Shown here: positions 8,670 through 22,381 of the stretch, in pieces
How positions within the stretch are numbered: position 1 is the stretch's first letter
Layout: each line of letters starts with the position of its first letter
NCBI GenBank assembly: GCA_021789435.1
Contig: JAJYJO010000002.1
Coordinates: forward strand, 3,713-67,712
DNA from: Chloroflexota bacterium
GTDB taxonomy: Bacteria > Chloroflexota > Limnocylindria > Limnocylindrales > CSP1-4
Direction: 5' to 3'
Length of the DNA: 64,000 bases
Made by a program: the position numbers and the translations under genes
Notes under the pieces: model-generated
The model's input: only the letters and a program-made list of their open reading frames with translations
Databases searched by the model: none
What the model was told of the DNA's origin: nothing

Positions 8670-8723
8670 CGTAGACCCCCGCCGAAGCGCCAACAGGCCG
8701 CCGACCGGCGGTCGGGGCGTGGG

Positions 8724-8765
8724 CCATTCGTACCGGTCGGAGGCGCCGGGACCCGGTGCTAGACT
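8724..8765 (+). promoter_or_regulatory. Promoter-like element CCATTCGTAC-N13-CCGGGACCCGGTGCTAGACT (extended -10 TGcTAGACT at 8757-8765) in the divergent GT87/GT-C intergenic region
   Basis: The -10-like TAGACT lies 9 nt upstream of the GTG start at 8775, so the transcript is probably leaderless. An almost identical element (CCATTCGTA-N..-CCGGGACCGGTGCTACAGT) occurs upstream of cpaB at 16610-16649. Confidence 0.45.
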
Positions 8766-8774
8766 GCACCGGCC

Positions 8775-10433
8775 GTGCGGAGACCCATCGCCCTCTATGC
8801 GTTCGCCCTGCTCGTCCGGCTGGGGTTGATTGCGGCCTTCCCTCATCCGGCCTATGTCGATTCCTACTACTACGTCAACGTGGCGCAGGCGCTCCAGGCC
8901 GGCCACGGCCTCAACATCGACTTCATCTGGGCCTTCGTGGATGTGGGCGGCCGGCTGCCGGCGAACCCCCACCTCCCGATCCCGAGCAACGCCCACTGGA
9001 TGCCGCTGGCGTCCCTGGTCCAGGTCCCCTTCCTGGCCCTCTTCGGCTCGGCCTCCTGGGCTCCCCAGGTCCCCTTCGCCCTCTTCGGGGCGCTCGCCGC
9101 GCCGCTCACCTGGGCGATCGCGCGCGAGGCCGGGGCGAGCCGGTCGGTCCAGCTCGGCGCCGGCCTGCTGGGCGCGGTTCCGGCCGGGGCCACCATCTTC
9201 ATGAGCCAGCCCGACAACTTCGGGCTGTACGAGGTGCTGGGCGCGGCGGCCCTCTGGCTGACGGCGCGCGGGCTCCGGGGGGACAGCCGCGGCTTCGCCC
9301 TGGCGGGCCTGCTGGTGGGGTTCGCCACGCTGGCCCGCAACGATGGCGTGCTGATCGGGCTGGTGGTGGCCCTTGCCTTCTTCTGGGACCGCTGGCGGGC
9401 CTGGCGTTCCGGCGGCGGCCGGCGACCGGCCATCCCGTTCTGGTCCGCGGTCGCCTGCGCGGCGCTCTTCGCCGTGGTGATGGTCCCCTGGTATGCGCGC
9501 GAGCTGGCCGTCTTCGGCAGCATCTCGCCCTCGTCCTCGTCCGGCCGGATCCTCTTCATCCGGGATTTCGCCGAGATGAACAGCATCACCACGCCCACCA
9601 CCCTGGCCTACTTCCTGGGCCAGGGGATCGGGCCACTGGTCACGAGCCGCGTCCTGGGCCTGGTGGCGGCGGCCGCCAACTTCGCCGTCATCATCTGCTC
9701 GCTGGTGCTGGCCCCGTTCCTGGTGGTGGGGGCCTGGCGAAGGCGCCGATCCGGTGATTTCGGGCCGTTCCTGGTCTACTTCGCCGTCCTCTTCGCCTTC
9801 TCCGCCCTGGTCTCCGCGGTCCACGTACCGTACGGGACCTTCCTCCACTCTGCGGTGGCGCTCGCTCCGCACACCTACGTCCTGGCGCTTGAGGGCGTGG
9901 TCGCCGCCGTCGGCTGGGTGGCCCGTCGCCGTCGGTCCTGGCACGAGGAGCAGGCGGTGCCGGTCTTCCTGTGGGGCACGGTGGGCCTGACGATGCTGAC
10001 CGCGGCGGCCTTCACCGTGAGCGTGGTCAACGGCTGGACGGTGGAGCGGAACTACCAGCTGGCGGTCGCCGCGAAACTGGACCGCCTGGGGGTGCCGGCT
10101 TCCGACCGGCTGATGACGATCGACGCGGGCGGCTACCGCTACACGACCGGGCACGGCGGGGTGGTGACGGTCAACGACCCACTGCCGACGATCGAGCAGG
10201 TGGCGAAGGCCTACGACATCCGCTGGCTGGTCCTGGAGCGGGGCCACATCGTCCCGCCGCTGGTCCCGGTCCTGGGCGGCCAGGTCCACCAGTCCTGGAT
10301 CGGGCCGCCGGTGCTGACGATCCCCTCCTCCGTGGCGGCCGGCACGTATCCGGAGCTGGCGCTGTACCCGGTCTGCGTGGCGCCGGGCGACGCGCGCTGT
10401 GCCGCGTCGACAGCGGCCGGGGCCACGCCATGA
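8775..10433 (+). CDS. GT-C membrane glycosyltransferase, PMT_2/ArnT-like (GT39/GT83-like)
   Basis: 552 aa; N-terminal TM then loop 'HPAYVDSYYYVNVAQAL' (acidic/aromatic loop-1 motif), ~11 TM helices and a C-terminal periplasmic domain. It is a paralog of the next gene. Confidence 0.65.
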   Translation: MRRPIALYAFALLVRLGLIAAFPHPAYVDSYYYVNVAQALQAGHGLNIDFIWAFVDVGGRLPANPHLPIPSNAHWMPLASLVQVPFLALFGSASWAPQVPFALFGALAAPLTWAIAREAGASRSVQLGAGLLGAVPAGATIFMSQPDNFGLYEVLGAAALWLTARGLRGDSRGFALAGLLVGFATLARNDGVLIGLVVALAFFWDRWRAWRSGGGRRPAIPFWSAVACAALFAVVMVPWYARELAVFGSISPSSSSGRILFIRDFAEMNSITTPTTLAYFLGQGIGPLVTSRVLGLVAAAANFAVIICSLVLAPFLVVGAWRRRRSGDFGPFLVYFAVLFAFSALVSAVHVPYGTFLHSAVALAPHTYVLALEGVVAAVGWVARRRRSWHEEQAVPVFLWGTVGLTMLTAAAFTVSVVNGWTVERNYQLAVAAKLDRLGVPASDRLMTIDAGGYRYTTGHGGVVTVNDPLPTIEQVAKAYDIRWLVLERGHIVPPLVPVLGGQVHQSWIGPPVLTIPSSVAAGTYPELALYPVCVAPGDARCAASTAAGATP

Positions 10434-12121
10434 GCGCCCCGCGCACGCCCGCGCCGGACGCCTTCGTCCTGTCGCCCCGCGAGGCCTGGCTGAGTGCCGG
10501 CCTCGTCTTCCTGGTGGCGCTGGCCGTCCGGGCCGTCTCCGCGGCCGGGGTGCCGTTCCCGGTCCCGGAGGACACCGCCTACTACGTGGAGGTGGCCCGC
10601 AACCTGGTCCAGGGCCGCGGCCTGGTGAGCGACGCGCTCTGGAGCTACCAGACACCGGCCCTGGACCCGGCGACGGGGACCTTCGGGCTCTTCTTCCCGC
10701 GGCCGGCCTTCGAGGTCTGGCTGCCGCTGCCGAGCCTGCTGATGGCCGTCCCGATGCTGCTCTTCGGGCCGACCTTCCACGCCGCACAGGTCATGTCGGT
10801 CCCGGTCGGGGCGCTCGTGCCCGTGCTGGCCTGGCGCCTGGGCGCCGACGTGGCGGCGGAGCTGGGCCTGCCGGCGGGGCGGGCGCGGACGATGGCCCTG
10901 GGCGCCGGCCTCTGCGCCGCGGTGTTCGGGCCGCTCGTCCTGCACAACCTGCTGCCGGACTCCACGATGGTCTTCGCGGTCCTCGCTCTCTGGGCCTGCC
11001 TGCTGATGGAGCGGCTTGTCCGGGACGCAAGCGGGGGACGGCGGATCGCGTCGCTGGACCGCCGGCTGCTGGGACTGGGCGTCCTGCTGGGGCTGGCCGC
11101 CGTGACCCGCAGCGAGGCGGCCTGGGTCGCCCTGACCTGGGCGCTGCTGGCCTGGCTGGCCGTACCGGGAGCGCGCCGGGAGCGGCTCCGCCTGGTCGCG
11201 GTCCCGGCGGTCGTGGCGCTGGCGGTCTTCGCTCCCTGGGGGATCCGCGACTGGCGGATCTTCGGCTCGCCGCTGCCCGGTCAGACCGCGGCCAATGCCT
11301 TCTCCGTGACCGGCTTCGACATCTTCGCCTACCAGGTCCTGCCCACCCTCCAGCGCTACCTGGCGCAGGGTCCGGCGGCGCTGCTCCGGATGCGCGTGGA
11401 GGGCTTCGACCACAACCTCTTCTCCGTCCTCCTGATCCCCGCCGTGCCGGTCGGGCCGCTCGGCCTGCTGGCCCTGCCCTGGACCGGCCGGCTGCGGTCG
11501 CTCCGGCCACTGCTGATCGTGAGCCTCCTCACCTTCACCATCACGACCCTGGTCTTCCCGGTCGCCACGACCTGGGGCACCTTCCTCCACGCGGCCGGGC
11601 CGGTGCACGTCCTTCTGCTGGTCAGCTGCCTGGTGGCGCTCGACGCGGTGATCGCCCGGGTCGGGCGCTGGCGCGGCTGGACGCGGCCGGTCGCCTGGCT
11701 GGGCCCGGCCCTGGTGGCAGGGGTCGCCGCGCCCTTCCTGCTTCTGACGGTGACCGGGATCGGCAGCCTGGCAGCGGACACGCAGGCTCGCTACGCGGCC
11801 CTGCCGGGCCGCCTGGCGGCCGCCGGCATCCCGCTCTCGGCCGACGCGCCGGTCGTGACGGACTTCCCGATCTGGCTCTCCTACGCGGACGGCGTCCCGA
11901 CCCTGGCCCTGCCCGACGAGTCGCCGGCCAGCGTGCTGTCGCTCGCCCAGCGGTTCGGGGCCCGGCTGCTCGTGGTGCAGAGCAGCGGCCACGGCGCGTG
12001 GCCCCAGGTCATCGAAGGCCCGAACGCCCCGCCCGGGGCGGCCTGCTTCCAGGCGGTCCCGCTGCCGCCGGCCGGGGCCGCCCTGGCCGAGACGCGTGCG
12101 TACCTCATCGTCTGCCGCTGA
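10430..12121 (+). CDS. GT-C membrane glycosyltransferase, PMT_2/ArnT-like, tandem paralog of 8775..10433
   Basis: ATG 10430 overlaps the upstream stop (ATGA). Loop-1 motif 'PVPEDTAYYVEVARNL', many TM helices. It is in frame with the tail of the listed ORF 9971..12121. Confidence 0.6.
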   Translation: MSAPRTPAPDAFVLSPREAWLSAGLVFLVALAVRAVSAAGVPFPVPEDTAYYVEVARNLVQGRGLVSDALWSYQTPALDPATGTFGLFFPRPAFEVWLPLPSLLMAVPMLLFGPTFHAAQVMSVPVGALVPVLAWRLGADVAAELGLPAGRARTMALGAGLCAAVFGPLVLHNLLPDSTMVFAVLALWACLLMERLVRDASGGRRIASLDRRLLGLGVLLGLAAVTRSEAAWVALTWALLAWLAVPGARRERLRLVAVPAVVALAVFAPWGIRDWRIFGSPLPGQTAANAFSVTGFDIFAYQVLPTLQRYLAQGPAALLRMRVEGFDHNLFSVLLIPAVPVGPLGLLALPWTGRLRSLRPLLIVSLLTFTITTLVFPVATTWGTFLHAAGPVHVLLLVSCLVALDAVIARVGRWRGWTRPVAWLGPALVAGVAAPFLLLTVTGIGSLAADTQARYAALPGRLAAAGIPLSADAPVVTDFPIWLSYADGVPTLALPDESPASVLSLAQRFGARLLVVQSSGHGAWPQVIEGPNAPPGAACFQAVPLPPAGAALAETRAYLIVCR

Positions 12122-12146
12122 TAGCCGCCCGTATACTCGATCGACG

Positions 12147-13271
12147 ATGGACGCCGGACGGACGGGGACGGACGCGCGCGAGGGCCGCTTCGACGAGCTC
12201 TATGCCGAGGCGAAGGCGACCCTGGGCTATGGCGCCAACACGCTCCGCTCGATCAGCGAGCGCTACCGCGAGGTTTACCGCGACGCGCTCGCCCGCTGGC
12301 ACGCCCTGCGCGACGAGCTGGAGGCGGTGGATCGCGCGACGCCCGGCGCCGCCCCTCCGACAGACGCGGGTGACGCGGCCGCTGTGGACGGCCTGCCCGG
12401 ACCTGCCGGGGCGCTGGCGGCCGAGGCCGGCGCCGAGGATGCCCGCCGGCGGGCGCTGCGGTCGGACGTGGAGCGGATGACCGGCGACCTGGGCCGCCAC
12501 CAGGGCGAGCTCTCCAAGCTGGAGCTGACCGTCCGGAGCATGGAGAGCGGCTGGCTCTTCCTGGAGCGCGGCGACGTCAGCCTGCTCACCGAGCGCGACG
12601 TGCCCTGGTTGCCGACGGACATCCAGATGCGGATCGTGGAGGCCCAGGAGGCCGAGCGGTCGCGCCTGGCCCAGGAGGTCCACGACGGGCCCGCCCAGGC
12701 GCTCTCCAACGCGATCTTCCAGGTGGAATACATCGAGCGGGTGCTGGACCAGAACACCCGGCTGGCGCGGACCGAGCTGCGCTTCCTCCGGGAGCTGCTG
12801 CGCCGCGAGCTGGGCGACGTCCGGACCTTCATCAGCCAGCTCCGGCCCCCGCTCCTCGACGAGCTGGGCCTGGACGGGACGATCCTGGACGCCGTGGAGA
12901 ACATGGCCGCCCTCGCCGGCATCACCATCGAGACGGAGCTGGCCGCGCCGGGCGACCGGCTCTCCGACGTGGAGCAGGCGGGCGTTCTCCGGATCGCCCA
13001 GGAAGCGCTCCAGAATGTGCGCAAGCACGCCGGGGCCCGGCGGGCCGTGGTGGCCACCCGCCTCGAGGGGACCGACTGGGTCCTGGAGGTGCGGGACGAC
13101 GGCCGGGGCTTCGACATCGGCCAGGTGGCCACCCGCGGCCGCCGCAACTTCGGCCTCCAGTTCATGCGGGAGCGGGCCGACCTGATCGGCGCCCGCTTCG
13201 AGGTTCGTTCTCGCCCCGCCGGGGGCGCCATCGTCTGGCTCGCCATCCCGATCGGAGAGGAGGGTTCATGA
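12147..13271 (+). CDS. Cytoplasmic sensor histidine kinase, HisKA_3/DegS-like
   Basis: No TM; coiled-coil N-terminus. H-box 'LAQEVHDGPAQALSNAIFQVEYI', N-box 'QEALQNVRKHA', G1 'VRDDGRGFD', G2 'GLQFMRERA'. TATACT -10-like hexamer at 12132-12137 lies 9 nt before the ATG (leaderless). Confidence 0.75.
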   Translation: MDAGRTGTDAREGRFDELYAEAKATLGYGANTLRSISERYREVYRDALARWHALRDELEAVDRATPGAAPPTDAGDAAAVDGLPGPAGALAAEAGAEDARRRALRSDVERMTGDLGRHQGELSKLELTVRSMESGWLFLERGDVSLLTERDVPWLPTDIQMRIVEAQEAERSRLAQEVHDGPAQALSNAIFQVEYIERVLDQNTRLARTELRFLRELLRRELGDVRTFISQLRPPLLDELGLDGTILDAVENMAALAGITIETELAAPGDRLSDVEQAGVLRIAQEALQNVRKHAGARRAVVATRLEGTDWVLEVRDDGRGFDIGQVATRGRRNFGLQFMRERADLIGARFEVRSRPAGGAIVWLAIPIGEEGS

Positions 13272-14011
13272 GCGCAATGGAGTACCAGGGCCCGGAGCGG
13301 CGGCGCGGCGGCCCGGACCGTCGCGGCGGGGAGAAGACCCGCATCCTGCTGGTGGACGACCACGCCCTCTTCCGGGTGGGCATGCGCAACATCCTCGAGC
13401 GCGAGCCCGACTTCGTGATCGTGGGCGAGGCGGACGACACCCGCAGCGCCTTCGACGGTGCCGTGGAGAACGCCCCGGACATCATCCTGATGGACCTCTC
13501 GCTCCCGCCTCCCGGCGGCATCGAGACGACCCAGCGCATCAAGCGCGAGCTGCCCGCGGCGGGGATCATCGTCCTGGCCGTCAGCGAGGACGAGGACCTG
13601 CTCTTCGACGCGATCAAGGCCGGCGCGGCCGCCTTCATCCTCAAGGACATCGGCCCCGACGACCTGGTGACGATCATCCGCCGGGTCGCGACCGGCGAGT
13701 TCCTGATCAACGACAAGGTTTTCTCGCGGCCGGCCGTCGCCAGCCGGGTCCTCAAGGAGTTCCGCGAGCTGGCCATCTACGGCCAGGAGGCCGCCCCGAT
13801 CTTCGCCCCTCTCTCGCCGCGGGAGGTCGAGATCCTGGACAACATCGCCCAGGGGATGACCAACAAGCAGGTTGCCTATGCCCTCTCGATCAGCGAGCAG
13901 ACGGTCAAGAACCACATGAGCTCGATCCTCCGCAAGCTGAGCGTCAACGACCGGACCCAGGCGGTCGTCTACGCCATGCGCCAGGGCTGGATCCGGATGC
14001 CCGAGGACTGA
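13268..14011 (+). CDS. Response regulator, NarL/LuxR family (DegU-like)
   Basis: ATGA overlap with the kinase. Receiver 'RILLVDDHALFRVGMR ... IILMDLSLP' plus C-terminal LuxR HTH 'LSPREVEILDNIAQGMTNKQVAYALSISEQTVKNHMSSILRKL'. Confidence 0.8.
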   Translation: MSAMEYQGPERRRGGPDRRGGEKTRILLVDDHALFRVGMRNILEREPDFVIVGEADDTRSAFDGAVENAPDIILMDLSLPPPGGIETTQRIKRELPAAGIIVLAVSEDEDLLFDAIKAGAAAFILKDIGPDDLVTIIRRVATGEFLINDKVFSRPAVASRVLKEFRELAIYGQEAAPIFAPLSPREVEILDNIAQGMTNKQVAYALSISEQTVKNHMSSILRKLSVNDRTQAVVYAMRQGWIRMPED

Positions 14012-14017
14012 GGCAGG

Positions 14018-15244
14018 GTGAGCGACCCGCAGCCGGCCTCCCCGGCCTCCCCGGCCGGCCTGGCCGACCTGGCAGCCGGCACGCGCCGGCAGGTCGACCT
14101 GCTCGGGGTGGAGCTGGCGGAGATCGACCTGCTGGTCGCCCAGGCCAGGTCCGAGGCCGGCCGGCACGAGCAGAGGCGCGTCCAGGCGGCCGAGAAGAGC
14201 AAGGCGGCGACCGACCGCGGCGCCGACGCGGCCGAGCTCGCGGAGCTGGGCCGCCAGCTCGTGGCCGCCACCCGGCGGGCGGCCGTCATGGAAGCCCAGG
14301 TGGACGTGCTGGAGGGCAAGCAGAAGGTCCTGGGACGCTTCCGCGACAGCCTGGCCGGCGAGGCGGTGGTGCTGGAGCGGCTGGCCGGCGGTGGCGGGGC
14401 ATCCGGCGGCGCCGCGGCGGGCGCGCTCGGGCCGGCTTCGGCCACGGAGGGCGAGCCGGGCGTGCTGCCGGCCGGGGTCTCCCGGCTGCTGCTGAGCGCC
14501 CAGGAGGACCTCCGCCGGGACATCGCCCGGGCGATGCACGACGGCCCGGCCCAGAGCCTGACCAACATCGTCCTCCAGGCCCAGATCGTGGATCGCCTCC
14601 TGGGCCGCGACGCGGCCGCGGCGGCGGCCGAGCTGCGCCAGCTGGTGGCGATGGTCCAGGCGACGCTGGAGGCCACAAAGTCCTTCATCTTCGACGTCCG
14701 GCCGATGGTCCTCGACGACCTGGGGCTGGTGCCGACGATCCGGCGGGCGGCCCTGGAGCGATCCCGCCGCGCCCGCATCCCGGTCGCGTTCGAGTCGGTG
14801 GGACTGGACCGCCGCCTGCCGATGGACGTGGAATCGGGCCTCTTCCGGATCCTGGACGAGGCGACCGAGGCCTATCTCGGCCTCGAGCCGGACCGGGTGC
14901 TGATCGACCTCGACTGGTCGGAGCGGCTGGCCGCCCGGGTCCGCGCGGTGCGCGACGCGGCGCCACAGGCGGAGGAACCGGCCGCGGCCGGCGGGGCGTC
15001 GGGCCGGCGCCGCCTGCGCTGGGGACGCGGCCGCGACAAGGAGCCGGAGGTGCCGGCTGCTCTCGCCGCCATGATCGAGGAGCGCCGGAGCGCGGAGGAG
15101 GCCGCCCGGACACCGGCCCCGATCGGCCTGCCCGCGCCCGCCTGGCGAGCCATCCAGCAGCGGGCCGCGGTGATCTCGGTGAGCGTGGAGCTCGCCGATG
15201 AGGGGCGCGACCTGCGCGTCGGCTTCGAGCCCGGCCGGGCCTGA
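14018..15244 (+). CDS. DegS-like histidine-kinase paralog with degenerate catalytic (CA) domain, a putative pseudokinase or phosphatase
   Basis: Coiled-coil N-terminus and intact DHp H-box 'IARAMHDGPAQSLTNIVLQAQIV'. The N-box is replaced by 'LDEATEAYLGL' (no Asn/Lys/His), there is no DxGxG, and there is an Ala-rich insert. Confidence 0.55.
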   Translation: MSDPQPASPASPAGLADLAAGTRRQVDLLGVELAEIDLLVAQARSEAGRHEQRRVQAAEKSKAATDRGADAAELAELGRQLVAATRRAAVMEAQVDVLEGKQKVLGRFRDSLAGEAVVLERLAGGGGASGGAAAGALGPASATEGEPGVLPAGVSRLLLSAQEDLRRDIARAMHDGPAQSLTNIVLQAQIVDRLLGRDAAAAAAELRQLVAMVQATLEATKSFIFDVRPMVLDDLGLVPTIRRAALERSRRARIPVAFESVGLDRRLPMDVESGLFRILDEATEAYLGLEPDRVLIDLDWSERLAARVRAVRDAAPQAEEPAAAGGASGRRRLRWGRGRDKEPEVPAALAAMIEERRSAEEAARTPAPIGLPAPAWRAIQQRAAVISVSVELADEGRDLRVGFEPGRA

Positions 15245-15246
15245 CC

Positions 15247-15459
15247 GTGGGGACGGCGCTCCTTCGCGACGGCCGGGAGGCCCCGGCCCGCCTGCTGGCG
15301 GCCGCGCGCCGGCTCTCCCGGGAAGAGGCCCAGGGCCTGGTGGAGTACGGCCTGATCCTGGCCCTGATGGCCCTGGTGGCGGTCGTGGCCCTCACCTTCT
15401 TCGGCGGCGAGCTCTCGACCCTGCTCAGCGTGGTCGGCGGAGCGGCCAGCGCCGGTTGA
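15247..15459 (+). CDS. flp: Flp/Fap family type IVb prepilin (flp1); start uncertain
   Basis: C-terminal '...EEAQG|LVEYGLILALMALVAVVALTFFGG' matches the Flp processing and hydrophobic-core motif. GTG start immediately after the upstream stop. Confidence 0.6.
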   Translation: MGTALLRDGREAPARLLAAARRLSREEAQGLVEYGLILALMALVAVVALTFFGGELSTLLSVVGGAASAG

Positions 15460-15566
15460 GGGTGGTGCGTCCGCTCCTAGGACGAATTGCCTAATGGATT
15501 CTGCGGTCCGTGCCGCCTACAGTCCTGATGCCCCGCTCTGGGGTCCGCTCTCATCGGGAGGCTTGT

Positions 15567-15746
15567 ATGGCGCTCGTCAATCGGCTCTACGCGTTCCTCG
15601 CCACCTTCGGTCACGACGAGGAAGGCCAGGGTCTCGCCGAGTACGCGCTGATCCTCGCCCTCATCGCGATCCTGGCGATCATCGCCCTGCTCTTCCTGGG
15701 CGGCCAGGTCAAGACGATCCTGAGCAACGTCGGCAACTCGATCTAG
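15567..15746 (+). CDS. flp: Flp family prepilin (flp2)
   Basis: ATG 15567 with GGGAGG RBS. 'MALVNRLYAFLATFGHDEEGQG|LAEYALILALIAILAIIALLFLGGQVKTILSNVGNSI'. The last 132 nt (15615..15746) are 131/132 identical to flp4. Confidence 0.75.
   Translation: MALVNRLYAFLATFGHDEEGQGLAEYALILALIAILAIIALLFLGGQVKTILSNVGNSI
15615..15746 (+). repeat. 132-bp direct repeat (copy 1; copy 2 at 16372..16503), 131/132 identical, covering the mature-pilin-coding part of flp2 and flp4
   Basis: Direct sequence comparison; single C/T synonymous difference. Confidence 0.8.
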
Positions 15747-15768
15747 CTCGCCGTCTGCGACCGACAAC

Positions 15769-15801
15769 GTGAAGGCCGCGCCCGGTGGGCGCGGCCTTCA
15801 C
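15769..15801 (+). terminator. Perfect 15-bp stem / 3-nt loop GC-rich hairpin after flp2 (intrinsic-terminator-like, no U-tract)
   Basis: gtgaaggccgcgccc-ggt-gggcgcggccttcac, 23 nt after the flp2 stop. Confidence 0.5.
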
Positions 15802-15966
15802 GCGTCGGGACGCCGTTGACGGCGCCTCGCCGTCGCCACGAGCGTTCCCAACTGCCCGGCTGCGGGAGGGCCGCCACCGGTTCATCGCCGTCATCCCGGG
15901 TGCCGCGCACCACTGCCCTCGCCGGGGGAGAGGCGGGGAGCCTCGAAGGAAAGGAGGTGGTGGAGC

Positions 15967-16140
15967 GTGTCCAGCGCAGTCGCACTCATCTCATCCATCA
16001 TCCGGCGCGACGACCGCGGCCAGGGCCTGGCCGAGTACGCACTCATCCTCGCCTTGATCGCGGTCGTGGCGATCGTCTCGCTCATGTTCCTGGGGCAGAA
16101 CGTCCAGACGCTGATCAGCACCGTGGGAAGCTCGGTCTGA
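15967..16140 (+). CDS. flp: Flp family prepilin (flp3), 57 aa, below the ORF-track length cut-off
   Basis: GTG start preceded by AAGGAGGTG SD (15951-15959). 'MSSAVALISSIIRRDDRGQG|LAEYALILALIAVVAIVSLMFLGQNVQTLISTVGSSV'; stop TGA 16138-16140. Its 5' leader is homologous to that of flp4. Confidence 0.7.
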   Translation: MSSAVALISSIIRRDDRGQGLAEYALILALIAVVAIVSLMFLGQNVQTLISTVGSSV

Positions 16141-16180
16141 GCGGGCGGAGCAGGAAAGCACCGATACCGGCCCTGACCCC

Positions 16181-16209
16181 TTGACAGCCCGCGGACACGC
16201 GCATAGGGT
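16181..16209 (+). promoter_or_regulatory. Sigma-70-like promoter TTGACA-N17-TAGGGT upstream of flp4
   Basis: TTGACA at 16181-16186, 17-nt spacer, TAGGGT at 16204-16209. Confidence 0.4.
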
Positions 16210-16329
16210 GGCGCGGCCAGTCGACCAGGGAGGCGGTGGGAGCCAGCATCGGGCTCGGAAGCCTGCCCGGCCGTGACGGCAACCCCCGCCCGGGGGCGGG
16301 GAGTCTCGAGGAAAGGAGGTGCCCACCCC

Positions 16330-16503
16330 ATGACCTATCTCATGGCTCTCATCTCGTCCTATCTTCATCGTGACGAGGAAGGCCAGGGTCTCGCCGAGTA
16401 CGCGCTGATCCTCGCCCTCATCGCGATTCTGGCGATCATCGCCCTGCTCTTCCTGGGCGGCCAGGTCAAGACGATCCTGAGCAACGTCGGCAACTCGATC
16501 TAG
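16330..16503 (+). CDS. flp: Flp family prepilin (flp4), near-identical duplicate of flp2
   Basis: ATG 16330 with GAAAGGAGGTG SD. Sequence from the DEEGQG|LAEYAL processing motif to the C-terminus is identical to flp2; the DNA differs at one synonymous site (ATC/ATT). Confidence 0.75.
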   Translation: MTYLMALISSYLHRDEEGQGLAEYALILALIAILAIIALLFLGGQVKTILSNVGNSI

Positions 16504-16526
16504 CGAGCGCCGTCGTTCTCGATCCA

Positions 16527-16552
16527 AGGGGCCGCGCCTTCGGCGCGGCCCC
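16527..16552 (+). terminator. GC-rich hairpin (11-bp stem, ttc loop) after flp4
   Basis: ggggccgcgcc-ttc-ggcgcggcccc, 24 nt after the flp4 stop; it separates the pilin array from cpaB. Confidence 0.5.
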
Positions 16553-16603
16553 TCCGTGTCCCGGGGGATCCCTCCTGTCAGCCGGGCGATTCGTCCCGCG
16601 CGT

Positions 16604-16649
16604 CCTAGGCCATTCGTATAGTCGCGGGCCCCGGGACCGGTGCTACAGT
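16604..16649 (+). promoter_or_regulatory. cpaB promoter-like element: CCTAGG-CCATTCGTA-N..-CCGGGACCGGTGCTACAGT (extended -10 TGcTACAGT at 16641-16649)
   Basis: Shares CCATTCGTA and CCGGGACC(C)GGTGCTAnAnT with the 8724-8765 element. A related CCTAGG-N36-TACAGT architecture sits upstream of flp2 (15476-15531). Confidence 0.45.
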
Positions 16650-16683
16650 GGTGCCACCTGTCACAAGGCTGGGGAGAGGGTGT

Positions 16684-17571
16684 GTGAAGCGATCTAACCG
16701 TCTGATCCTGCTCATCGGGGTCTTTCTGGCCGTCGTCGCCTTCGTCGGTATCGTCTTCATCATCGGTTCGGGGACCGGCGGCGGCGGTGGAGGCACACCG
16801 ACGCCTCCCACCACGGTCTCGGTTGTCACCGCGGCGCGCGACATCCCGCTGGGGAACCAGATCGTCAGCGCGGACCTGGCGACCACCACGATCAAGACCA
16901 CCGACGAACCGGCCGATGCCTTCACCGACAAGGCCCTGGTCCTGGGCCAGATCGTCCGGACCACCGTCACCCAGGGCCAGATCCTGACCCGAAGCCAGTT
17001 CCTGACGACCACCAACGCGAACAGCATCGTGCCGAGCCTCCAGAAGGGCTTCCGGGCGATCGCCGTCCAGGTGGACCAGGTGACCGGCGTGGGAACGGTG
17101 ATCCAGACCGGCGACCGGGTGGACGTGGTCCTGGGCATCCGCATCCAGACGCTGGTACCGGCACCCGGCCCGAGCGCGCTCCCGCAGCCCTACCCGGGCG
17201 GCCCCCAGCTCTCGGTAAAGACCGTCCTCCAGAACCTCCAGGTGGTGGGAACCCTCCTGCCGCCGGCCACGCAGAGCCAGCAGCAACAGCAGGCCCAGCC
17301 GTCGCCGAGTCCGAGCGGCGGGAACGCCACCACGGGGCCGACCGTGACCCTGAACGGCCAGCAGGAGATCGTGATCCTGGCGGTCACGCCCCAGCAGGCC
17401 GAGGTGATCCGCTACGCCCAGCTGGGCGCCGAGCCGATCACCCTGACCCTCCGCTCCACGGCGGACAAGGACAGCCCGCCTGACGCCACGACCGGCATCG
17501 TCCTCAAGACCCTCATCGACCAGTACGGCGTCATCCCGCCCTTCCCGATCATCTCCAGCGTCCCGAAGTGA
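16684..17571 (+). CDS. cpaB: Flp pilus assembly protein CpaB/RcpC (SAF domain)
   Basis: GTG 16684 with GGGGAGAGGG RBS. 'MKRSNRLILLIGVFLAVVAFVG' TM anchor, Gly/Thr/Pro linker, SAF-like 'VVTAARDIPLGNQIVSADL'. The upstream in-frame GTG at 16648 overlaps the -10-like hexamer. Confidence 0.75.
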   Translation: MKRSNRLILLIGVFLAVVAFVGIVFIIGSGTGGGGGGTPTPPTTVSVVTAARDIPLGNQIVSADLATTTIKTTDEPADAFTDKALVLGQIVRTTVTQGQILTRSQFLTTTNANSIVPSLQKGFRAIAVQVDQVTGVGTVIQTGDRVDVVLGIRIQTLVPAPGPSALPQPYPGGPQLSVKTVLQNLQVVGTLLPPATQSQQQQQAQPSPSPSGGNATTGPTVTLNGQQEIVILAVTPQQAEVIRYAQLGAEPITLTLRSTADKDSPPDATTGIVLKTLIDQYGVIPPFPIISSVPK

Positions 17572-17671
17572 ACCCGGGGGACGGCCGCGGCCGCCCCTTG
17601 ATCCAGCAGAAAGCGGCGGGCTCGGTCCCTGACCGGGCCCGTCCCCATCCGGAGCTCCGACCGCAACACCC

Positions 17672-18910
17672 ATGGCCGACCAGATCCGCGTCCTGATCGT
17701 CGACGACATCCCGGAGACCCGGGACCACCTCGCCAAGCTGCTCGGCTTCGAGAGCGACATCGAGGTGGCGGGTTCGGCTGCGTCCGGCGCGGAGGCCCTG
17801 GAGATGGCCGCGCGCCTGCTGCCCGACGTGGTGCTGATGGACATCAACATGCCGGACATGGACGGCATCGCGGCCACGGAGCTGCTGTCGGCCCAGGTGC
17901 CGACGGCAGCGATCGTGATGATGTCGGTCCAGGGCGAGGCGGACTACCTGCGGCGTTCCATGCTGGCCGGGGCGCGCGAATTCCTGGTCAAGCCCTTCAG
18001 CTCCGACGAGCTGACGGCCGCGATCCGCCAGGTCCACTCCCGCGAGCGGCAGAAGCTGGACCGCCTGGTGCCGGTCGCCCCGACGCCGGGGAACGGGACG
18101 CCGGCCGGCGAGCGCGGGCCCGGCGAGATCCTGGCGATCTTCAGCCCCAAGGGCGGCGTGGGCCGGACGACGATCGCGGCCAACCTGGCCATCGCCGTCG
18201 CCGAACGCGGCAAGCGGGTGGTGGTGGTGGACGCGTCCTTCCAGTTCGGCGACATCGGCGTCCTCTTCAACCTCAACCCGCGCAACAAGTCGATCGCGGA
18301 CCTGGTCCCGGAGCTCGAGGCCGGCGAGCCCGAGTCGCTGGACACCTTCGTCATCACCCACTCCTCCGGGGTCCGGGTGCTGCTTGCCCCGCCCTCGCCG
18401 GAGATGGCGGAGCTGATCACGACCACCGCTGTCAAGCGCGTCCTGGAGGCCCTCCGGGCCAGCCACGACCTGGTGGTCGTCGACTGCGCCGCCTCCTTCA
18501 ACGACACGACGCTGGCGATCCTGGACCTGGCAGACGTCATCCTTTCCGTGCTGACCCTGGAGATCACCTGCATCAAGAACACCCGCCTCTTCCTGGAGGT
18601 GGCGGACCAGCTCGGCTACGAGCCGTCCAAGGTCCGGCTGGTGCTCAACCGCGCCGACACCACGCTCGGCATCCGGGTCGCCGACGTGGAGCACTCGATC
18701 GGCCGGAAGGTCGACTACACGGTGGTCAGCGACGGGCGGAGCGTGGTCTACGCATTGAACCGGGGCGTACCCTTCGTCCTGAGCAATCGGGAGAGTCAGG
18801 TCACGCAGGACATCATCCGGCTGGCCACCGGGCTCGCAGGCGAGCGCGCGGCGGCCGGAGGTGCCCGCAAGGCTGTGGCTCCCCGCAAATCACTGTTCGC
18901 ATGGCGATGA
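17672..18910 (+). CDS. cpaE: CpaE/TadZ-like pilus assembly ATPase: N-terminal canonical receiver domain plus ParA/MinD-type P-loop ATPase
   Basis: Receiver 'IRVLIVDDIPETRD ... VVLMDINMPDMDG ... LVKPF' and ATPase 'IFSPKGGVGRTTIAANLAIAV'. Confidence 0.8.
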   Translation: MADQIRVLIVDDIPETRDHLAKLLGFESDIEVAGSAASGAEALEMAARLLPDVVLMDINMPDMDGIAATELLSAQVPTAAIVMMSVQGEADYLRRSMLAGAREFLVKPFSSDELTAAIRQVHSRERQKLDRLVPVAPTPGNGTPAGERGPGEILAIFSPKGGVGRTTIAANLAIAVAERGKRVVVVDASFQFGDIGVLFNLNPRNKSIADLVPELEAGEPESLDTFVITHSSGVRVLLAPPSPEMAELITTTAVKRVLEALRASHDLVVVDCAASFNDTTLAILDLADVILSVLTLEITCIKNTRLFLEVADQLGYEPSKVRLVLNRADTTLGIRVADVEHSIGRKVDYTVVSDGRSVVYALNRGVPFVLSNRESQVTQDIIRLATGLAGERAAAGGARKAVAPRKSLFAWR

Positions 18911-18933
18911 GACCTGTTCGCATGGCGATCAGA
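18893..18933 (+). repeat. Tandem ~21-bp direct duplication (ctgttcgcatggcgatGagac / ctgttcgcatggcgatCagac) spanning the cpaE stop codon
   Basis: Two adjacent copies; the first contains the cpaE TGA, and in the second the stop is altered to TCA. Confidence 0.5.
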
Positions 18934-19001
18934 CCGGATCTGCCCAACCATCCGGTCGTCGGTGGAGCGACCCCAATCGGGGGCGAGAAGGGGTATAGGC
19001 G

Positions 19002-20411
19002 ATGTCCCTCCTGAAGCGGATCGAGAGCGCCCGACCGGGCTCCGGGCCGGGCCTGCCCGCACCGGCGCCCGGGGCGCCGGCCCCCGGCGGGCCGGGCGCG
19101 CCCGGCGGACCGGTCAGTCCCTCCCAGCGGCTGCTGACGCAGGCTCCGGTCCGCGAGTCGTTCCGGGACGTCAAGTTCCGGATCCAGAGCCGGGTCATCC
19201 AGGACCTGGATCCCAAGCTGGACCTCTCCAACCAGGTCGAGGTGCGCCGCCAGATCGAGGAGATCTTCGGCAAGGTCATCGACGAGGAGGGCCTGGCCCT
19301 GACGCGCGCCGAGCGGGTCAGGATGCTGGAGCAGATCACCGACGAGATCATCGGCCTTGGCCCGCTGGAGCCGCTGCTCCGCGACGAGAGCATCACCGAG
19401 ATCATGGTCAACGGCCCCCGCCAGGTCTACATCGAGCGCTCGGGCAAGCTGGAGCTGACCAACGTCGTCTTCCAGAACGACGACCACGTCATGCGGATCA
19501 TCGACCGGATCATCGCCCCGATCGGACGCCGCGTGGACGAGTCGTCACCGATGGTGGACGCCCGCCTGACCGACGGCTCCCGCGTCAACGCCATCATCCC
19601 GCCGCTGTCGCTCGTCGGCCCGGTGGTCACCGTCCGGAAGTTCTCCGCCTCGCCGTTCACCGTGGACGACCTGATCCGCTTCGGGACCGCGACGCCGGAG
19701 ATGTTCGACTTCCTGCGGGCCTGCGTGGAGGCGCGGCTCAACATCTTCGTCTCCGGCGGCACCGGCTCGGGCAAGACCACGACCCTCAACGTCCTCTCCT
19801 CGTTCATCCCCAACGACGAGCGGATCATCACGATCGAGGACGCGGCCGAGCTCCAGCTCCGCCAGGAGCACGTGGTGACGCTCGAGTCGCGGCCGCCGAA
19901 CATCGAGGGCCGCGGGGCGATCCCGATCCGGGAGCTCGTGCGCAACGCCCTCCGGATGCGCCCCGACCGGATCATCGTCGGCGAGTGCCGCGGCGGCGAG
20001 GCGCTGGACATGCTCCAGGCGATGAACACCGGCCACGACGGCTCGATGTCCACCGGCCACGCGAACAGTCCCCGCGACATGCTGGCGCGCCTGGAGACGA
20101 TGGTCCTGATGGCCGGCGTGGACCTGCCGCTGCGGGCGATCCGCGAGCAGGTCGCCTCCGCGGTGGACCTGATCGTCCACCAGTCCCGCCTCAAGGACGG
20201 CACCCGCAAGATCGTCAACATCACCGAGGTCCAGGGCATGGAGGGTGATGTGATCGTCATGCAGGACGTCTTCGTCTTCGAGCAGACGGGCATCGTGGAG
20301 GGCAAGATCCAGGGCCGCCTCAAGGCGACCGGGATCCGGCCGAAGTTCGTCGAGAAGTTCGAGGTCATGGGCATCCACCTGCCGCCTGGCCTCTTCGGCT
20401 TCGTCTACTAG
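19002..20411 (+). CDS. cpaF: Tad/Flp pilus secretion ATPase CpaF/TadA (type II/IV secretion NTPase)
   Basis: Walker A 'VSGGTGSGKTTTLNVL', 'ITIEDAAELQL', Asp/His boxes, 'ECRGGEALDMLQAMNTGHDG'. Confidence 0.85.
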   Translation: MSLLKRIESARPGSGPGLPAPAPGAPAPGGPGAPGGPVSPSQRLLTQAPVRESFRDVKFRIQSRVIQDLDPKLDLSNQVEVRRQIEEIFGKVIDEEGLALTRAERVRMLEQITDEIIGLGPLEPLLRDESITEIMVNGPRQVYIERSGKLELTNVVFQNDDHVMRIIDRIIAPIGRRVDESSPMVDARLTDGSRVNAIIPPLSLVGPVVTVRKFSASPFTVDDLIRFGTATPEMFDFLRACVEARLNIFVSGGTGSGKTTTLNVLSSFIPNDERIITIEDAAELQLRQEHVVTLESRPPNIEGRGAIPIRELVRNALRMRPDRIIVGECRGGEALDMLQAMNTGHDGSMSTGHANSPRDMLARLETMVLMAGVDLPLRAIREQVASAVDLIVHQSRLKDGTRKIVNITEVQGMEGDVIVMQDVFVFEQTGIVEGKIQGRLKATGIRPKFVEKFEVMGIHLPPGLFGFVY

Positions 20412-20429
20412 GCCGCCGAGGAGGAAGCC

Positions 20430-21443
20430 ATGAACCCCGTCACCGTCGCCGTCGCGGCCGTCGCGGCCCTGGCGATCGTCCTCATCGCGGCCGGCATCGC
20501 CTTCTCCGGCGGGTCGGGGATCAGCGCCCGCCTGGAGCGGTATGCGGCCGGCAGGCAGGACCAGCCCAAGCCGGCCTCCACGGGCCAGGGCCCCATCTCG
20601 GACCTGCTGGCCCAGAGCCAGGCGCTGGCGCAGCTCAACAAGGCCGTCGAGCAGCGCGACTTCGGGGCCAACCTGGCCCGGGAGCTGGCCCGGGCGGACC
20701 TCAAGCTGAAGGTCAGCGAGTACCTGGCCATCTGGGCCGGCTCCACCGTCGGGCTGCCGATCCTCTTCCTGATCCTGTCGATCGCCCTGCCGACGCTGGG
20801 CAACCCGCTGGTCCTGCTGGTGGGAGCCTTCCTGGGCTTCCTGCTGCCGCGCTTCTGGCTGGGCCGCCGCAAGAGCTCGCGGCTCAACGCCTTCAACAAG
20901 CAGCTCCCGGACACGATCACCCTGATCGCCAACGCCCTGCGAGCCGGCTCGTCGTTCCTCCAGGCGATCGAGCTGGTGGTCCGGGAATCGCGACCGCCGA
21001 TCTCGCTCGAGTTCGGCCGGGTCATCCGGGAGGTCAACCTGGGCCTGCCCTTCGAGCAGGCGCTGGAGAACATGGTCCGCCGGGTCCGCTCGGACGACCT
21101 GGAGTTGATGGCGACGGCCATCTCCATCCAGCACACGGTCGGCGGCAACCTGGCCGAGATCCTCGACTCGATCGCCTACACGATCCGGGAGCGGATCCGG
21201 ATCAAGGGCGAGATCCGGACGCTCACCGCCCAGCAGCGACTCTCCGGCTATGTCGTCGGCTTCCTGCCGATCGGCATCGCACTCTTCCTCTTCATCGCCG
21301 CGCCGACCTTCCTGGAGCCGATGTTCAAGAACCCGCCGGGGATCATCGGCCTGCCGGCCGGGGTCATCATCCTCGCCTTCGGCGGCTTCATGATGTTCAT
21401 CGGCTTCATGGCCATCCGGCGCATCGTCGACATCGAGGTCTAG
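20430..21443 (+). CDS. tadB: Tad pilus inner-membrane platform protein TadB (T2SS-F domain)
   Basis: N-terminal TM, cytoplasmic domain, then GspF-like repeat 'PDTITLIANALRAGSSFLQAIE'; follows cpaF. Confidence 0.75.
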   Translation: MNPVTVAVAAVAALAIVLIAAGIAFSGGSGISARLERYAAGRQDQPKPASTGQGPISDLLAQSQALAQLNKAVEQRDFGANLARELARADLKLKVSEYLAIWAGSTVGLPILFLILSIALPTLGNPLVLLVGAFLGFLLPRFWLGRRKSSRLNAFNKQLPDTITLIANALRAGSSFLQAIELVVRESRPPISLEFGRVIREVNLGLPFEQALENMVRRVRSDDLELMATAISIQHTVGGNLAEILDSIAYTIRERIRIKGEIRTLTAQQRLSGYVVGFLPIGIALFLFIAAPTFLEPMFKNPPGIIGLPAGVIILAFGGFMMFIGFMAIRRIVDIEV

Positions 21444-21445
21444 CC

Positions 21446-22381
21446 ATGCCGACGTTCATGCCCATCGTCATCGCCGCCATCGCGGCGGGCTCGATCCTGC
21501 TGATCTTCCTGGGCCTGGCCGGCAGCCGGCCGGTGGACCCGGTCCAGGCCCGGCTGACCCAGCTCGGCTCGATGCAGGCCAAGAACCTGGAGGAGCTGGA
21601 ACTCCAGCAGCCGTTCGTGGAGCGGACGCTGCGCCCGCTGGCCCTGCGTCTCTCCGGGTCCGTCTCCCGGCTCACGAGCCAGTCCTTCACCGAGACCACC
21701 GAGAAGCGGCTGGCCCTGGCCGGCAACCCCGGCGACCTGCGGGTCGCAGACTGGCTGGGGATCAAGGCCGTGGCGGCCATCGTCTTCGCCATCGTCTTCG
21801 TCGTGCTGGGTGTGCTGCTGCTCGGCTTCCCGCTGATGATCGGCCTGATCATGGGCGTGGTGGGCCTGCTCTTCGGCTACACGATTCCGGAGTTCTGGCT
21901 GGGCCGCCGCGTGCGGGCCCGCCAGAAGGCGATCCTGCTGCAGATCCCGGACGCGCTGGACCTGCTGACGATCTCCGTCCGGGCCGGCCTGGGCTTCGAC
22001 GCGGCGCTGGCCAAGGTCGTGGAGAAGATGAAGGGCCCGCTGGTGGACGAGTTCCGGCGGGCGCTGGCGGAGGTGCGGGTTGGCAAGGCGCGCCGCGACG
22101 CGCTGCGCGACATGATCCCGCGGACCGAGGTACCGGCCCTCACCAACTTCATCGGGGCAATCATCCAGGCCGAGCAGCTGGGCGTCTCGATCTCCAAGGT
22201 GCTGCAGGTCCAGTCGGAACAGCTGCGGATCGAGCGGCGCCAGCGGGCCGAGGAGATGGCGGCCAAGGCGCCGATCAAGATGCTCTTCCCCCTGGTGGGC
22301 TGCATCTTCCCGTCCCTCTTCATCATCATCCTGGGCCCGGCCATGATCCTGCTGGTCCTGAACCTGGGGGCGGCGCACTAG
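21446..22381 (+). CDS. tadC: Tad pilus inner-membrane platform protein TadC (T2SS-F domain)
   Basis: GspF-like 'PDALDLLTISVRAGLGFDAALAKV'; paralog of tadB immediately downstream. Confidence 0.75.
   Translation: MPTFMPIVIAAIAAGSILLIFLGLAGSRPVDPVQARLTQLGSMQAKNLEELELQQPFVERTLRPLALRLSGSVSRLTSQSFTETTEKRLALAGNPGDLRVADWLGIKAVAAIVFAIVFVVLGVLLLGFPLMIGLIMGVVGLLFGYTIPEFWLGRRVRARQKAILLQIPDALDLLTISVRAGLGFDAALAKVVEKMKGPLVDEFRRALAEVRVGKARRDALRDMIPRTEVPALTNFIGAIIQAEQLGVSISKVLQVQSEQLRIERRQRAEEMAAKAPIKMLFPLVGCIFPSLFIIILGPAMILLVLNLGAAH

Follow-up and report, generated by a model that had tools for sequence, protein, structure and literature searches.

The locus and the architecture of pHK

In a stretch of 64,000 nucleotides from the Chloroflexota contig JAJYJO010000002.1, hereafter the window, a two-component pair and a set of Flp/Tad pilus genes flank an open reading frame (ORF) that encodes a degenerate homolog of DegS-type histidine kinases, designated here as pHK (Table 1). 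The upstream kinase HK1 carries 'LAQEVHDGPAQALSNAIFQ', 'QEALQNVRKHA' and 'VRDDGRGFD', and its N, G1 and G2 motifs are invariant in 4 orthologs. The response regulator (RR) that follows it is 84-92% identical across loci, with D30, D76 and K126 invariant. RR shares its first 4 nt with HK1, 6 nt separate RR from pHK and 2 nt separate the pHK stop codon from flp1; an operon structure is proposed because genes overlap. The same gene order, namely glycosyltransferase(s)-HK1-RR-pHK-Flp pilins-RcpC/CpaB-CpaE-CpaF-TadB, recurs in 84 related loci wherever the contig is long enough. In DNA of 74% G+C such as this, a consensus scan for promoters and terminators (positions 8500-17000) gave no usable information.

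Table 1. Position of pHK, its constituent parts and the neighbouring genes in the window
Feature	Position	Strand	Basis
HK1, bona fide cytoplasmic histidine kinase, upstream	12096..13271	+	HisKA_3 + HATPase_c
RR, NarL/DegU-type response regulator, REC + GerE helix-turn-helix (HTH)	13268..14011	+	Pfam, NCBIfam
pHK, degenerate DegS-type histidine-kinase homolog, 408 aa, GTG start	14018..15244	+	ORF; HisKA_3 alone in Pfam
pHK helical hairpin at the N-terminus (residues 15-123), homologous to DegS sensor coiled coil	14060..14386	+	AlphaFold2, invariant residues, alignment
pHK Gly/Ala-rich disordered linker, residues 124-151	14387..14470	+	pLDDT <50; identity 0.28 (65 genomes)
pHK DHp (HisKA_3) domain, residues 152-232	14471..14713	+	Pfam, invariance in 121 sequences
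pHK CA domain of Bergerat fold, degenerate (no N, G1 or G2 motif), residues 237-408	14726..15241	+	
pHK Ala/Gly/Arg-rich disordered insert replacing the ATP lid, residues 312-343	14951..15046	+	pLDDT <50; identity 0.24
pHK family-specific conserved helix, residues 344-364	15047..15109	+	alignment statistics; AlphaFold2 helix 347-364
flp1, Flp-like pilin, 'GLVEYGLIL' type	15247..15459	+	Pfam Flp_Fap E 1.5e-5
Three more Flp pilin genes	~15567-15746, 15967-16140, 16331-16503	+	ORFs; Flp_Fap match
Tad pilus assembly genes	16648..22381	+	Pfam, synteny
RcpC/CpaB	16648-17571	+	
CpaE/TadZ with N-terminal canonical REC	17672-18910	+	
CpaF ATPase	19002-20411	+	
TadB	20430-21443	+	
TadC	21446-22381	+	

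As regards domain content, Pfam recognises in pHK the sole HisKA_3 domain (PF07730) at residues 166-232 (E 1.6e-11), with no match to HATPase_c (PF02518) even at E<=1, a threshold that none of 24 family members reaches either. With relaxed thresholds, Pfam and NCBIfam returned no HATPase_c or DegS match in pHK or these 24 relatives. From the letters of this DNA, an earlier note had described the ORF as a putative pseudo-histidine-kinase with an intact H-box and a degenerate domain for catalysis and ATP binding (CA). The strings it quoted were all located, that is the H-box 'IARAMHDGPAQSLTNIVL' at 14522-14575 as well as 'LDEATEAYLGL' and 'VRAVRDAAPQ', followed by 'AEEPAAAGGASGRRRLRWGRGRDKEPE'.

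An AlphaFold2 (AF2) model built from a 24-sequence alignment, with a mean predicted local distance difference test (pLDDT) of 78, divides pHK into an N-terminal hairpin (residues 15-123), a disordered linker (residues 127-150 in the model), the hairpin of the dimerisation and histidine phosphotransfer (DHp) domain (residues 152-232) and an alpha/beta domain (residues 237-408). The two helices of the N-terminal hairpin (residues 15-66 and 71-123) are modelled at pLDDT 93-98 and bear a series of invariant polar residues (E32, E35, Q42, E46, R49, H50, E51, R54, R87, Q94 and K101). A direct hidden Markov model (HMM) match to the DegS sensor (PF05384) was found neither in pHK nor in the 24 relatives; its N-terminus can nonetheless be aligned with that of intact DegS-like kinases bearing PF05384, the profile-profile and BLAST alignments beginning at residues 10-18.

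The phospho-acceptor domain and the altered ATP-binding domain

In the DHp domain, the phospho-acceptor His174 (codon 14537-14539) is followed by the phosphatase motif D175-x-x-x-Q179 and by the regulator-docking positions T182 and L186, and the residues H174, D175, G176, P177, Q179, S180, L181, T182, N183 and I184 are invariant in 121/121 sequences of the family. DxxxQ is the phosphatase motif of HisKA_3 kinases such as NarX (PMC3510030), and in DesK, Gln193 places the catalytic water and the regulator docks on Ser196 and Leu200 (PMC5231405). Since the pHK residues at His+5, His+8 and His+12 (Q179, T182 and L186), all invariant, match these functional positions of NarX and DesK, phosphatase chemistry is proposed for pHK.

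The CA domain was compared with that of 22 intact DegS-type orthologs, in which N293, D320, G322, G324, F325 and G341 are invariant. Where the N-box of the intact orthologs reads FRIxQEALxN, the pHK family reads FRIIDEAxx(G/A)Y; the G1 motif VEDDGxGF is replaced by RVxAxR..., with a near-invariant Arg312 opposite the G1 Asp, and the G2 motif GLxxMxERV by LPxxxWREIQQRA. The short ATP lid gives way to an insert of 35-45 aa and a new conserved helix (E-[LMI]-P-x-A-L-x-A-M-I), in which P346, L349 and M352 are invariant or nearly so, and a 3-residue deletion takes the place of the PGx that precedes the last two strands in intact orthologs. Insert and helix have no counterpart in the intact orthologs; the Ala/Gly-rich insert pointed out in the earlier note covers residues 312-343, which are disordered in the model. 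Position by position, residue 285, aligned with the N-box Asn, is Gly in 67, Ala in 53 and Leu in 1 of the 121 sequences, never Asn; Arg312 occupies the position aligned with the G1 Asp in 114/121, and none of the 121 has DxGxG at the aligned G1 position. Matches to the regular expression D.G.G fall in low-complexity linkers, are not position-specific and were not used. Neither of the two outcomes that the earlier note named as refuting it was obtained. Aligned with their intact counterparts, the family members have lost the N and G boxes (Gly, Ala or Leu in one case, Arg312 in the other) rather than carrying them at a shifted position. Besides, a tblastn search of the HK1 CA domain against the six frames of positions 14000-15800 gave noise only (best E 0.006 over 38 residues), so that no frameshift conceals a canonical CA domain. 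Judging from these substitutions, the CA domain of pHK is predicted to be no longer able to bind ATP. With the HATPase_c HMM, the N-box Asn, G1 and G2 all failing, pHK is by these sequence measures not a canonical histidine kinase, and the earlier description of an intact H-box (invariant in 121/121) next to lost CA motifs, with HisKA_3 alone in Pfam, stands.

The loss of motifs has not erased the domain. Homology between pHK and the intact orthologs is traceable along the whole CA domain, R382 and G396 are invariant in both, and the residues E272, F276, R277 and E281 of the N-box helix are kept. The modelled alpha/beta domain reaches pLDDT >90 apart from the disordered insert (about 312-346), and the structure prediction that the earlier note had called for indicates that the Bergerat fold survives in the C-terminal domain. 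The retained fold and N-box helix residues, together with the conserved new helix at the former lid, are what could be said for a non-canonical autokinase, whose ATP pocket would be built from the insert and that helix. Throughout the family, nevertheless, every residue that contacts Mg-ATP in GHKL kinases is gone (Asn of the N-box, Asp and glycines of G1, glycines of G2), an Arg is conserved opposite the G1 Asp and no HATPase_c match appears at E<=1 in 24 members, which makes this alternative very improbable.

Ancestry and conservation of the pHK family

The earlier note had seen in pHK a duplicated copy of the neighbouring kinase that subsequently lost catalysis. The pairwise alignment it suggested was performed: BLASTP aligns only residues 143-284 of pHK with HK1 (34% identity, E 1e-14) and ends in the N-box helix. 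Comparison of the profiles of the two families similarly covers 139 columns (residues 148-286, E 3e-17), i.e. the DHp domain and the N-box helix only. Compared with the profile of the 22 intact DegS-type kinases, that of the pHK family aligns over 296 columns (residues 10-306, probability 100%, E 2.7e-58), which encompass the N-terminal coiled coil, the DHp domain and half of the CA domain. The HMM matches lying just outside the family are complete kinases with DegS (PF05384), HisKA_3 and HATPase_c domains (profile positions ~6-300). Such intact DegS-type kinases are widespread in Chloroflexota, including metagenome-assembled genomes (MAGs) labelled Chloroflexia and Anaerolineae.

Most telling is a Chloroflexota MAG of 55% G+C (L085), where the slot of pHK holds an intact kinase with DegS, HisKA_3 and HATPase_c domains. 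The gene order there, PMT_2-x-x-HK-RR-[intact DegS-type kinase]-Flp-RcpC-CpaE(REC)-CpaF-TadB-TadC-DUF192, is that of the window, and the flanking genes are orthologous to the window's (RR 59%, CpaE 55% and CpaF 72%). Intact DegS-type kinases are further found directly upstream of Flp pilin genes in two other Chloroflexota loci (L088 and L090) and in an HK-RR-DegS trio in a third (L089). A neighbour-joining tree, computed without bootstrap and on residues 152-300 only, gathers the degenerate family and P0172 into one clade with P0228 as its sister, HK1 being a distant outgroup. Because of the intact kinase in the same slot of L085, the profile comparisons and this tree, pHK is regarded as orthologous to a second, ancient kinase of DegS type and as its degenerate form. 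A recent duplication of HK1 is rejected on the profile comparisons together with the tree, with the restrictions just given, and that part of the earlier note is not supported in the form in which it was put.

P0228, on a 2.4-kb JGI contig, keeps the N-box Asn and reads 'DAKGL' where DxGxG is expected; it may represent an intermediate state. P0261 (L087, 7001-8086; a Chloroflexota of 45% G+C, on a 6.1-Mb contig) combines DegS and HisKA_3 with a CA domain that is degenerate in its own way, with His at the N-box Asn position and 'NKEGM' at G1; an RR precedes it and a 1819-aa TadE-domain protein adjoins it. Its nesting among intact kinases in the tree suggests that its CA loss occurred independently of that of the pHK family.

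Regarding distribution, a database search with pHK returned >3,500 relatives. The best 120 of them, 385-470 aa long with PF07730 as their sole Pfam domain, show 52-67% identity over their full length, plus one 99% copy; they are labelled 'histidine kinase' or 'DegS', and the named taxa are mostly Candidatus Limnocylindria/Limnocylindrales. An exhaustive HMM search yielded 360 clusters (50% identity) at E<=1e-30, and, when one genome of each GTDB species was scanned, pHK relatives appeared in at least 541 species representatives, the 80 loci retained being all Chloroflexota MAGs. The comparative genomics proposed in the earlier note uncovered broad conservation, and its view of a rarely annotated class of regulator is supported in that pHK is a conserved regulator under a wrong annotation, homologs being called 'histidine kinase' or DegS in the database. 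The error is systematic and concerns thousands of entries.

Constraint on the different domains was estimated as mean pairwise identity across the same 65 genomes for pHK and HK1. In pHK, it amounts to 0.82 for the DHp domain, 0.64 and 0.54 for the first and second halves of the degenerate CA domain, 0.28 for the linker and 0.24 for the insert; in HK1, to 0.79 for the DHp domain and 0.665 for the CA domain. The dead CA domain is thus nearly as constrained as the live one. Such domain-structured conservation is the pattern to be expected from selection, not from decay. The term 'pseudo' consequently holds in that the catalytic motifs are lost, and fails where it implies a decaying protein, since the fold is kept and the dead domain is under purifying constraint.

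These data also bear on the explanation of pHK by gene decay, by a frameshift in sequencing or by a wrongly called ORF. The region, with its ~74% G+C, does contain many spurious long ORFs. Full-length homologs in the same frame nevertheless occur in at least 541 species representatives, conservation follows the domains, the AF2 fold is confident and no other frame contains CA motifs; as the C-terminal reading frame is kept in hundreds of relatives, the feature is real and no chance product. The homologs, the six-frame tblastn and the conservation in 65 genomes exclude this explanation, which retains next to no probability. Taken as a whole, the pHK family is a HisKA_3/DegS-derived kinase homolog of independent evolution and with a dead ATP site, which an entire uncultured class conserves and which is genetically linked with Flp/Tad pilus genes. 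No account of it in terms of Limnocylindria, DegS, Flp or pseudo-kinases was found in the open-access literature, where absence is no proof.

Candidate roles in the regulation of Flp/Tad pili

Beyond its ancestry, the question is what a histidine kinase deprived of ATP could be kept for. Proteins derived from histidine kinases with a degenerate CA domain are known as phosphotransferases and act in phosphotransfer or as negative regulators, namely PhyT, Spo0B and ChpT (PMC5898713, PMC3433190). Conserved beside a working kinase, a regulator and pilus genes, pHK probably removes or relays phosphate and does not generate it. The reading preferred here, to which an even chance is given, is that pHK works without ATP on the adjacent RR of NarL/DegU type, the putative regulator of the Flp/Tad genes, as a phosphatase of its phosphorylated form (RR~P), as an acceptor that takes up the phosphoryl group reversibly, or as both. 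HK1, RR, pHK and flp1 would be co-transcribed in that order; HK1 would supply phosphate to the NarL/DegU-type RR, on which pHK would dock via its DHp domain, and, without ATP, pHK would dephosphorylate RR~P and/or take the phosphoryl group at His174 as a sink. The DegS-type coiled-coil input domain would gate this activity, and the resulting level of RR~P would control the adjacent Flp/Tad pilus genes. The retained CA fold would have a structural rather than catalytic role, clamping the DHp domain as in the phosphatase state of DesK, where the CA domains are rigidly clamped onto it (PMC5231405).

The choice of RR as the partner follows from its type. HisKA_3 DHp domains usually pair with NarL-type receivers, the type to which the adjacent RR belongs. 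DesK, NarX and VraS, canonical HisKA_3 kinases/phosphatases, provide the best sequence and structure matches for both the DHp and CA domains and have the DxxxQ motif and the docking positions in common with pHK. Unlike these membrane sensors with working ATP sites, pHK is predicted to be soluble and its ATP-binding motifs are gone. Its closest relatives in overall design are DegS of B. subtilis and the Chloroflexota DegS-type kinases (PF05384 + HisKA_3 + HATPase_c), which likewise are soluble, of comparable size (~390 aa) and equipped with a coiled-coil input domain, a HisKA_3 domain with an HDGPAQ H-box and an adjacent NarL/DegU-type regulator. pHK departs from them by the absence of N, G1 and G2, by the replacement of the lid with the 35-45 aa insert and helix and by the 3-residue deletion; moreover, unlike in the case of DegS, its locus encodes a second, intact kinase upstream of the regulator.

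Several points weigh against a phosphatase acting on RR. The absolute invariance of His174 would not be an obvious need of a pure phosphatase and points to phosphotransfer or a structural role in the DHp core. HK1 retains an HDxxxQ motif of its own, so that a separate phosphatase is not strictly needed. Some intact DegS-like orthologs of Chloroflexota adjoin Flp genes without any adjacent regulator, and the primary partner of pHK could lie in the pilus system instead of being the NarL-type RR. From synteny only do we infer control of the pilus genes, and the host is uncultured. More generally, motif loss, a kept fold, conservation across the class, orthology to an intact kinase and synteny are what the analysis shows for pHK; its partner, its regulatory target and the way in which phosphate flows are inferred.

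The principal rival, unlikely in our estimation, is a phosphotransferase of the Spo0B/ChpT/PhyT type that would relay phosphate, in a chain of four steps, from HK1~P to the RR Asp, then to His174 of pHK and on to the CpaE/TadZ receiver, or in the reverse direction, coupling pilin transcription to pilus assembly. It would account for the invariance of His174 in 121/121 sequences, given that the phospho-acceptor His is dispensable for the phosphatase activity of NarX and unneeded for that of HisKA_3 kinases (PMC5231405). A DHp domain followed by a CA-like domain without ATP motifs is the architecture of ChpT, Spo0B and PhyT (PMC3433190, PMC5898713), and Foldseek returns ChpT (4qpk/4qpj) as well, at E ~1.5e-3. 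The locus offers two canonical receivers with invariant residues, that of RR (D30, D76 and K126) and that of CpaE, which is full length (Pfam, 96 bits) and has D11, D12, D57, S85 and K107 invariant in 65/65; the CpaE receiver is probably phosphorylatable, no dedicated kinase being evident for CpaE. Besides, DegS-like orthologs track Flp/tad genes even in the absence of an adjacent RR. The CpaE receiver, however, is not NarL-type, its alpha1 reading 'DDIPETRDHLAKLL' vs 'DDHALFRVGMRNIL' in RR, whereas NarL-type receivers are the usual partners of the HisKA_3 DHp domain. Two intact kinases and two receivers were already present in the ancestral locus, so that a relay is unneeded to explain the parts. 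Searched with a profile, the PDB sequences returned the DHp domain of DesK alone, nothing that bears on the C-terminal domain and no homology to Spo0B or ChpT (PhyT was outside this comparison); ChpT is a weak fold match by Foldseek only.

Like Spo0B (Bacillus), ChpT (Caulobacter/Brucella) and PhyT (Sphingomonas), which arose from a kinase by degeneration (PMC5898713, PMC3433190), pHK combines a His-bearing hairpin with a CA-like domain without ATP-binding motifs. It differs from them by a DHp domain of HisKA_3/DegS type (theirs being HisKA_2/HWE-like or Spo0B-type), by an independent origin and by the large input domain that it has kept. On its predicted architecture pHK falls within the structural definition of the kinase-derived phosphotransferases, phosphotransfer itself being putative. 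The specific proposal of a HisKA_3/DegS-derived phosphotransferase that shuttles phosphate between the DegU-like factor and the CpaE/TadZ receiver, so as to couple pilin expression to pilus assembly, ranks lower than the relay in general and is quite improbable. By analogy, the coiled coil of pHK could report pilus or pilin status; in Bacillus, DegS-DegU responds to the arrest of flagellar rotation.

A non-catalytic modulator is lower again in probability and considered doubtful. pHK would heterodimerise with or bind HK1, as in the pairs RetS-GacS and DivL-CckA, or the CA domain of HK1 would trans-phosphorylate pHK. DivL has a Tyr in place of the phospho-acceptor His and keeps its CA domain; RetS acts via DHp heterodimerisation. 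Both DivL (Caulobacter) and RetS (Pseudomonas) are among the structural matches of pHK, with which they have the kinase fold in common, and both are kinase-fold proteins repurposed to regulate another kinase or pathway (PMC4211667). In pHK, conversely, it is the CA motifs that are lost, His and phosphatase dyad being invariant. Since His174 and the ten H-box residues next to it are invariant, a His-centred chemistry or geometry would still be required, unlike in the DivL and RetS scaffolds, which do not need the intact phospho-acceptor and phosphatase dyad implied by the H-box of pHK. In addition, the DHp domains of pHK and HK1 are only ~34% identical and belong to distant clades, and heterodimerisation of histidine kinases is rare.

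Whichever of these roles applies, the concept of kinase derivatives with a dead CA domain is established, and a pair of orthologs, one intact and one dead, within a single conserved locus is a useful system. Spo0B, ChpT, PhyT, DivL and RetS are key nodes of bacterial signalling and few such proteins are known; to our knowledge, none of the derivatives with a dead ATP domain comes from the HisKA_3/DegS lineage. With its second kinase intact in one lineage of Chloroflexota, but dead and strongly conserved throughout Limnocylindria, this locus amounts to a natural experiment in which to ask why a histidine kinase is kept after it has lost the use of ATP. The family further hints at how an abundant uncultured class of soil and freshwater may regulate its Flp/Tad pili. 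If a phosphorelay were indeed linked to Tad pilus assembly, this would be notable; pHK would then represent the fourth lineage of phosphotransferases to have evolved independently from kinases, and the first connected with a type IV-like filament.

Additional observations concern the neighbouring genes. In RR, the conserved Thr/Ser switch position is occupied by Ala104 in 76/76 orthologs, and the HTH shows 99.5% pairwise identity in 65 genomes whose flanking kinases differ by 35-45%. On the other side of pHK, a flp1-type gene starts within ~25 nt of the pHK stop in 64/81 loci, 34 of them with a 4-nt overlap of the stop, and flp1 appears translationally coupled to pHK. The flp1 leader was envisaged as a conserved ligand of the pHK coiled coil and rejected, the leaders varying in length and sequence across 81 loci. 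The pilin genes of the window form a four-copy flp repeat family, flp2 and flp4 being 99% identical over 133 nt. Just past flp2, at 15768-15802, lies an inverted repeat, G+C-rich and perfect over 16 bp, with a loop of 3 nt and without T-tract, likely a transcription terminator or attenuator, and a related hairpin is present near 16530-16547, past flp4.

Upstream of HK1, two large membrane glycosyltransferase-like genes (8775-12121), one matching PMT_2 and the other without Pfam match, belong to the conserved synteny, and GT87 genes are present in related loci. The second of the two runs into the start of HK1; this points to a single long operon and perhaps to glycosylation of the pilin or envelope. 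At the opposite end of the tad cluster, a DUF192 gene follows TadC in Limnocylindria (L001, L003 and L004) as well as in the distant Chloroflexota locus L085.

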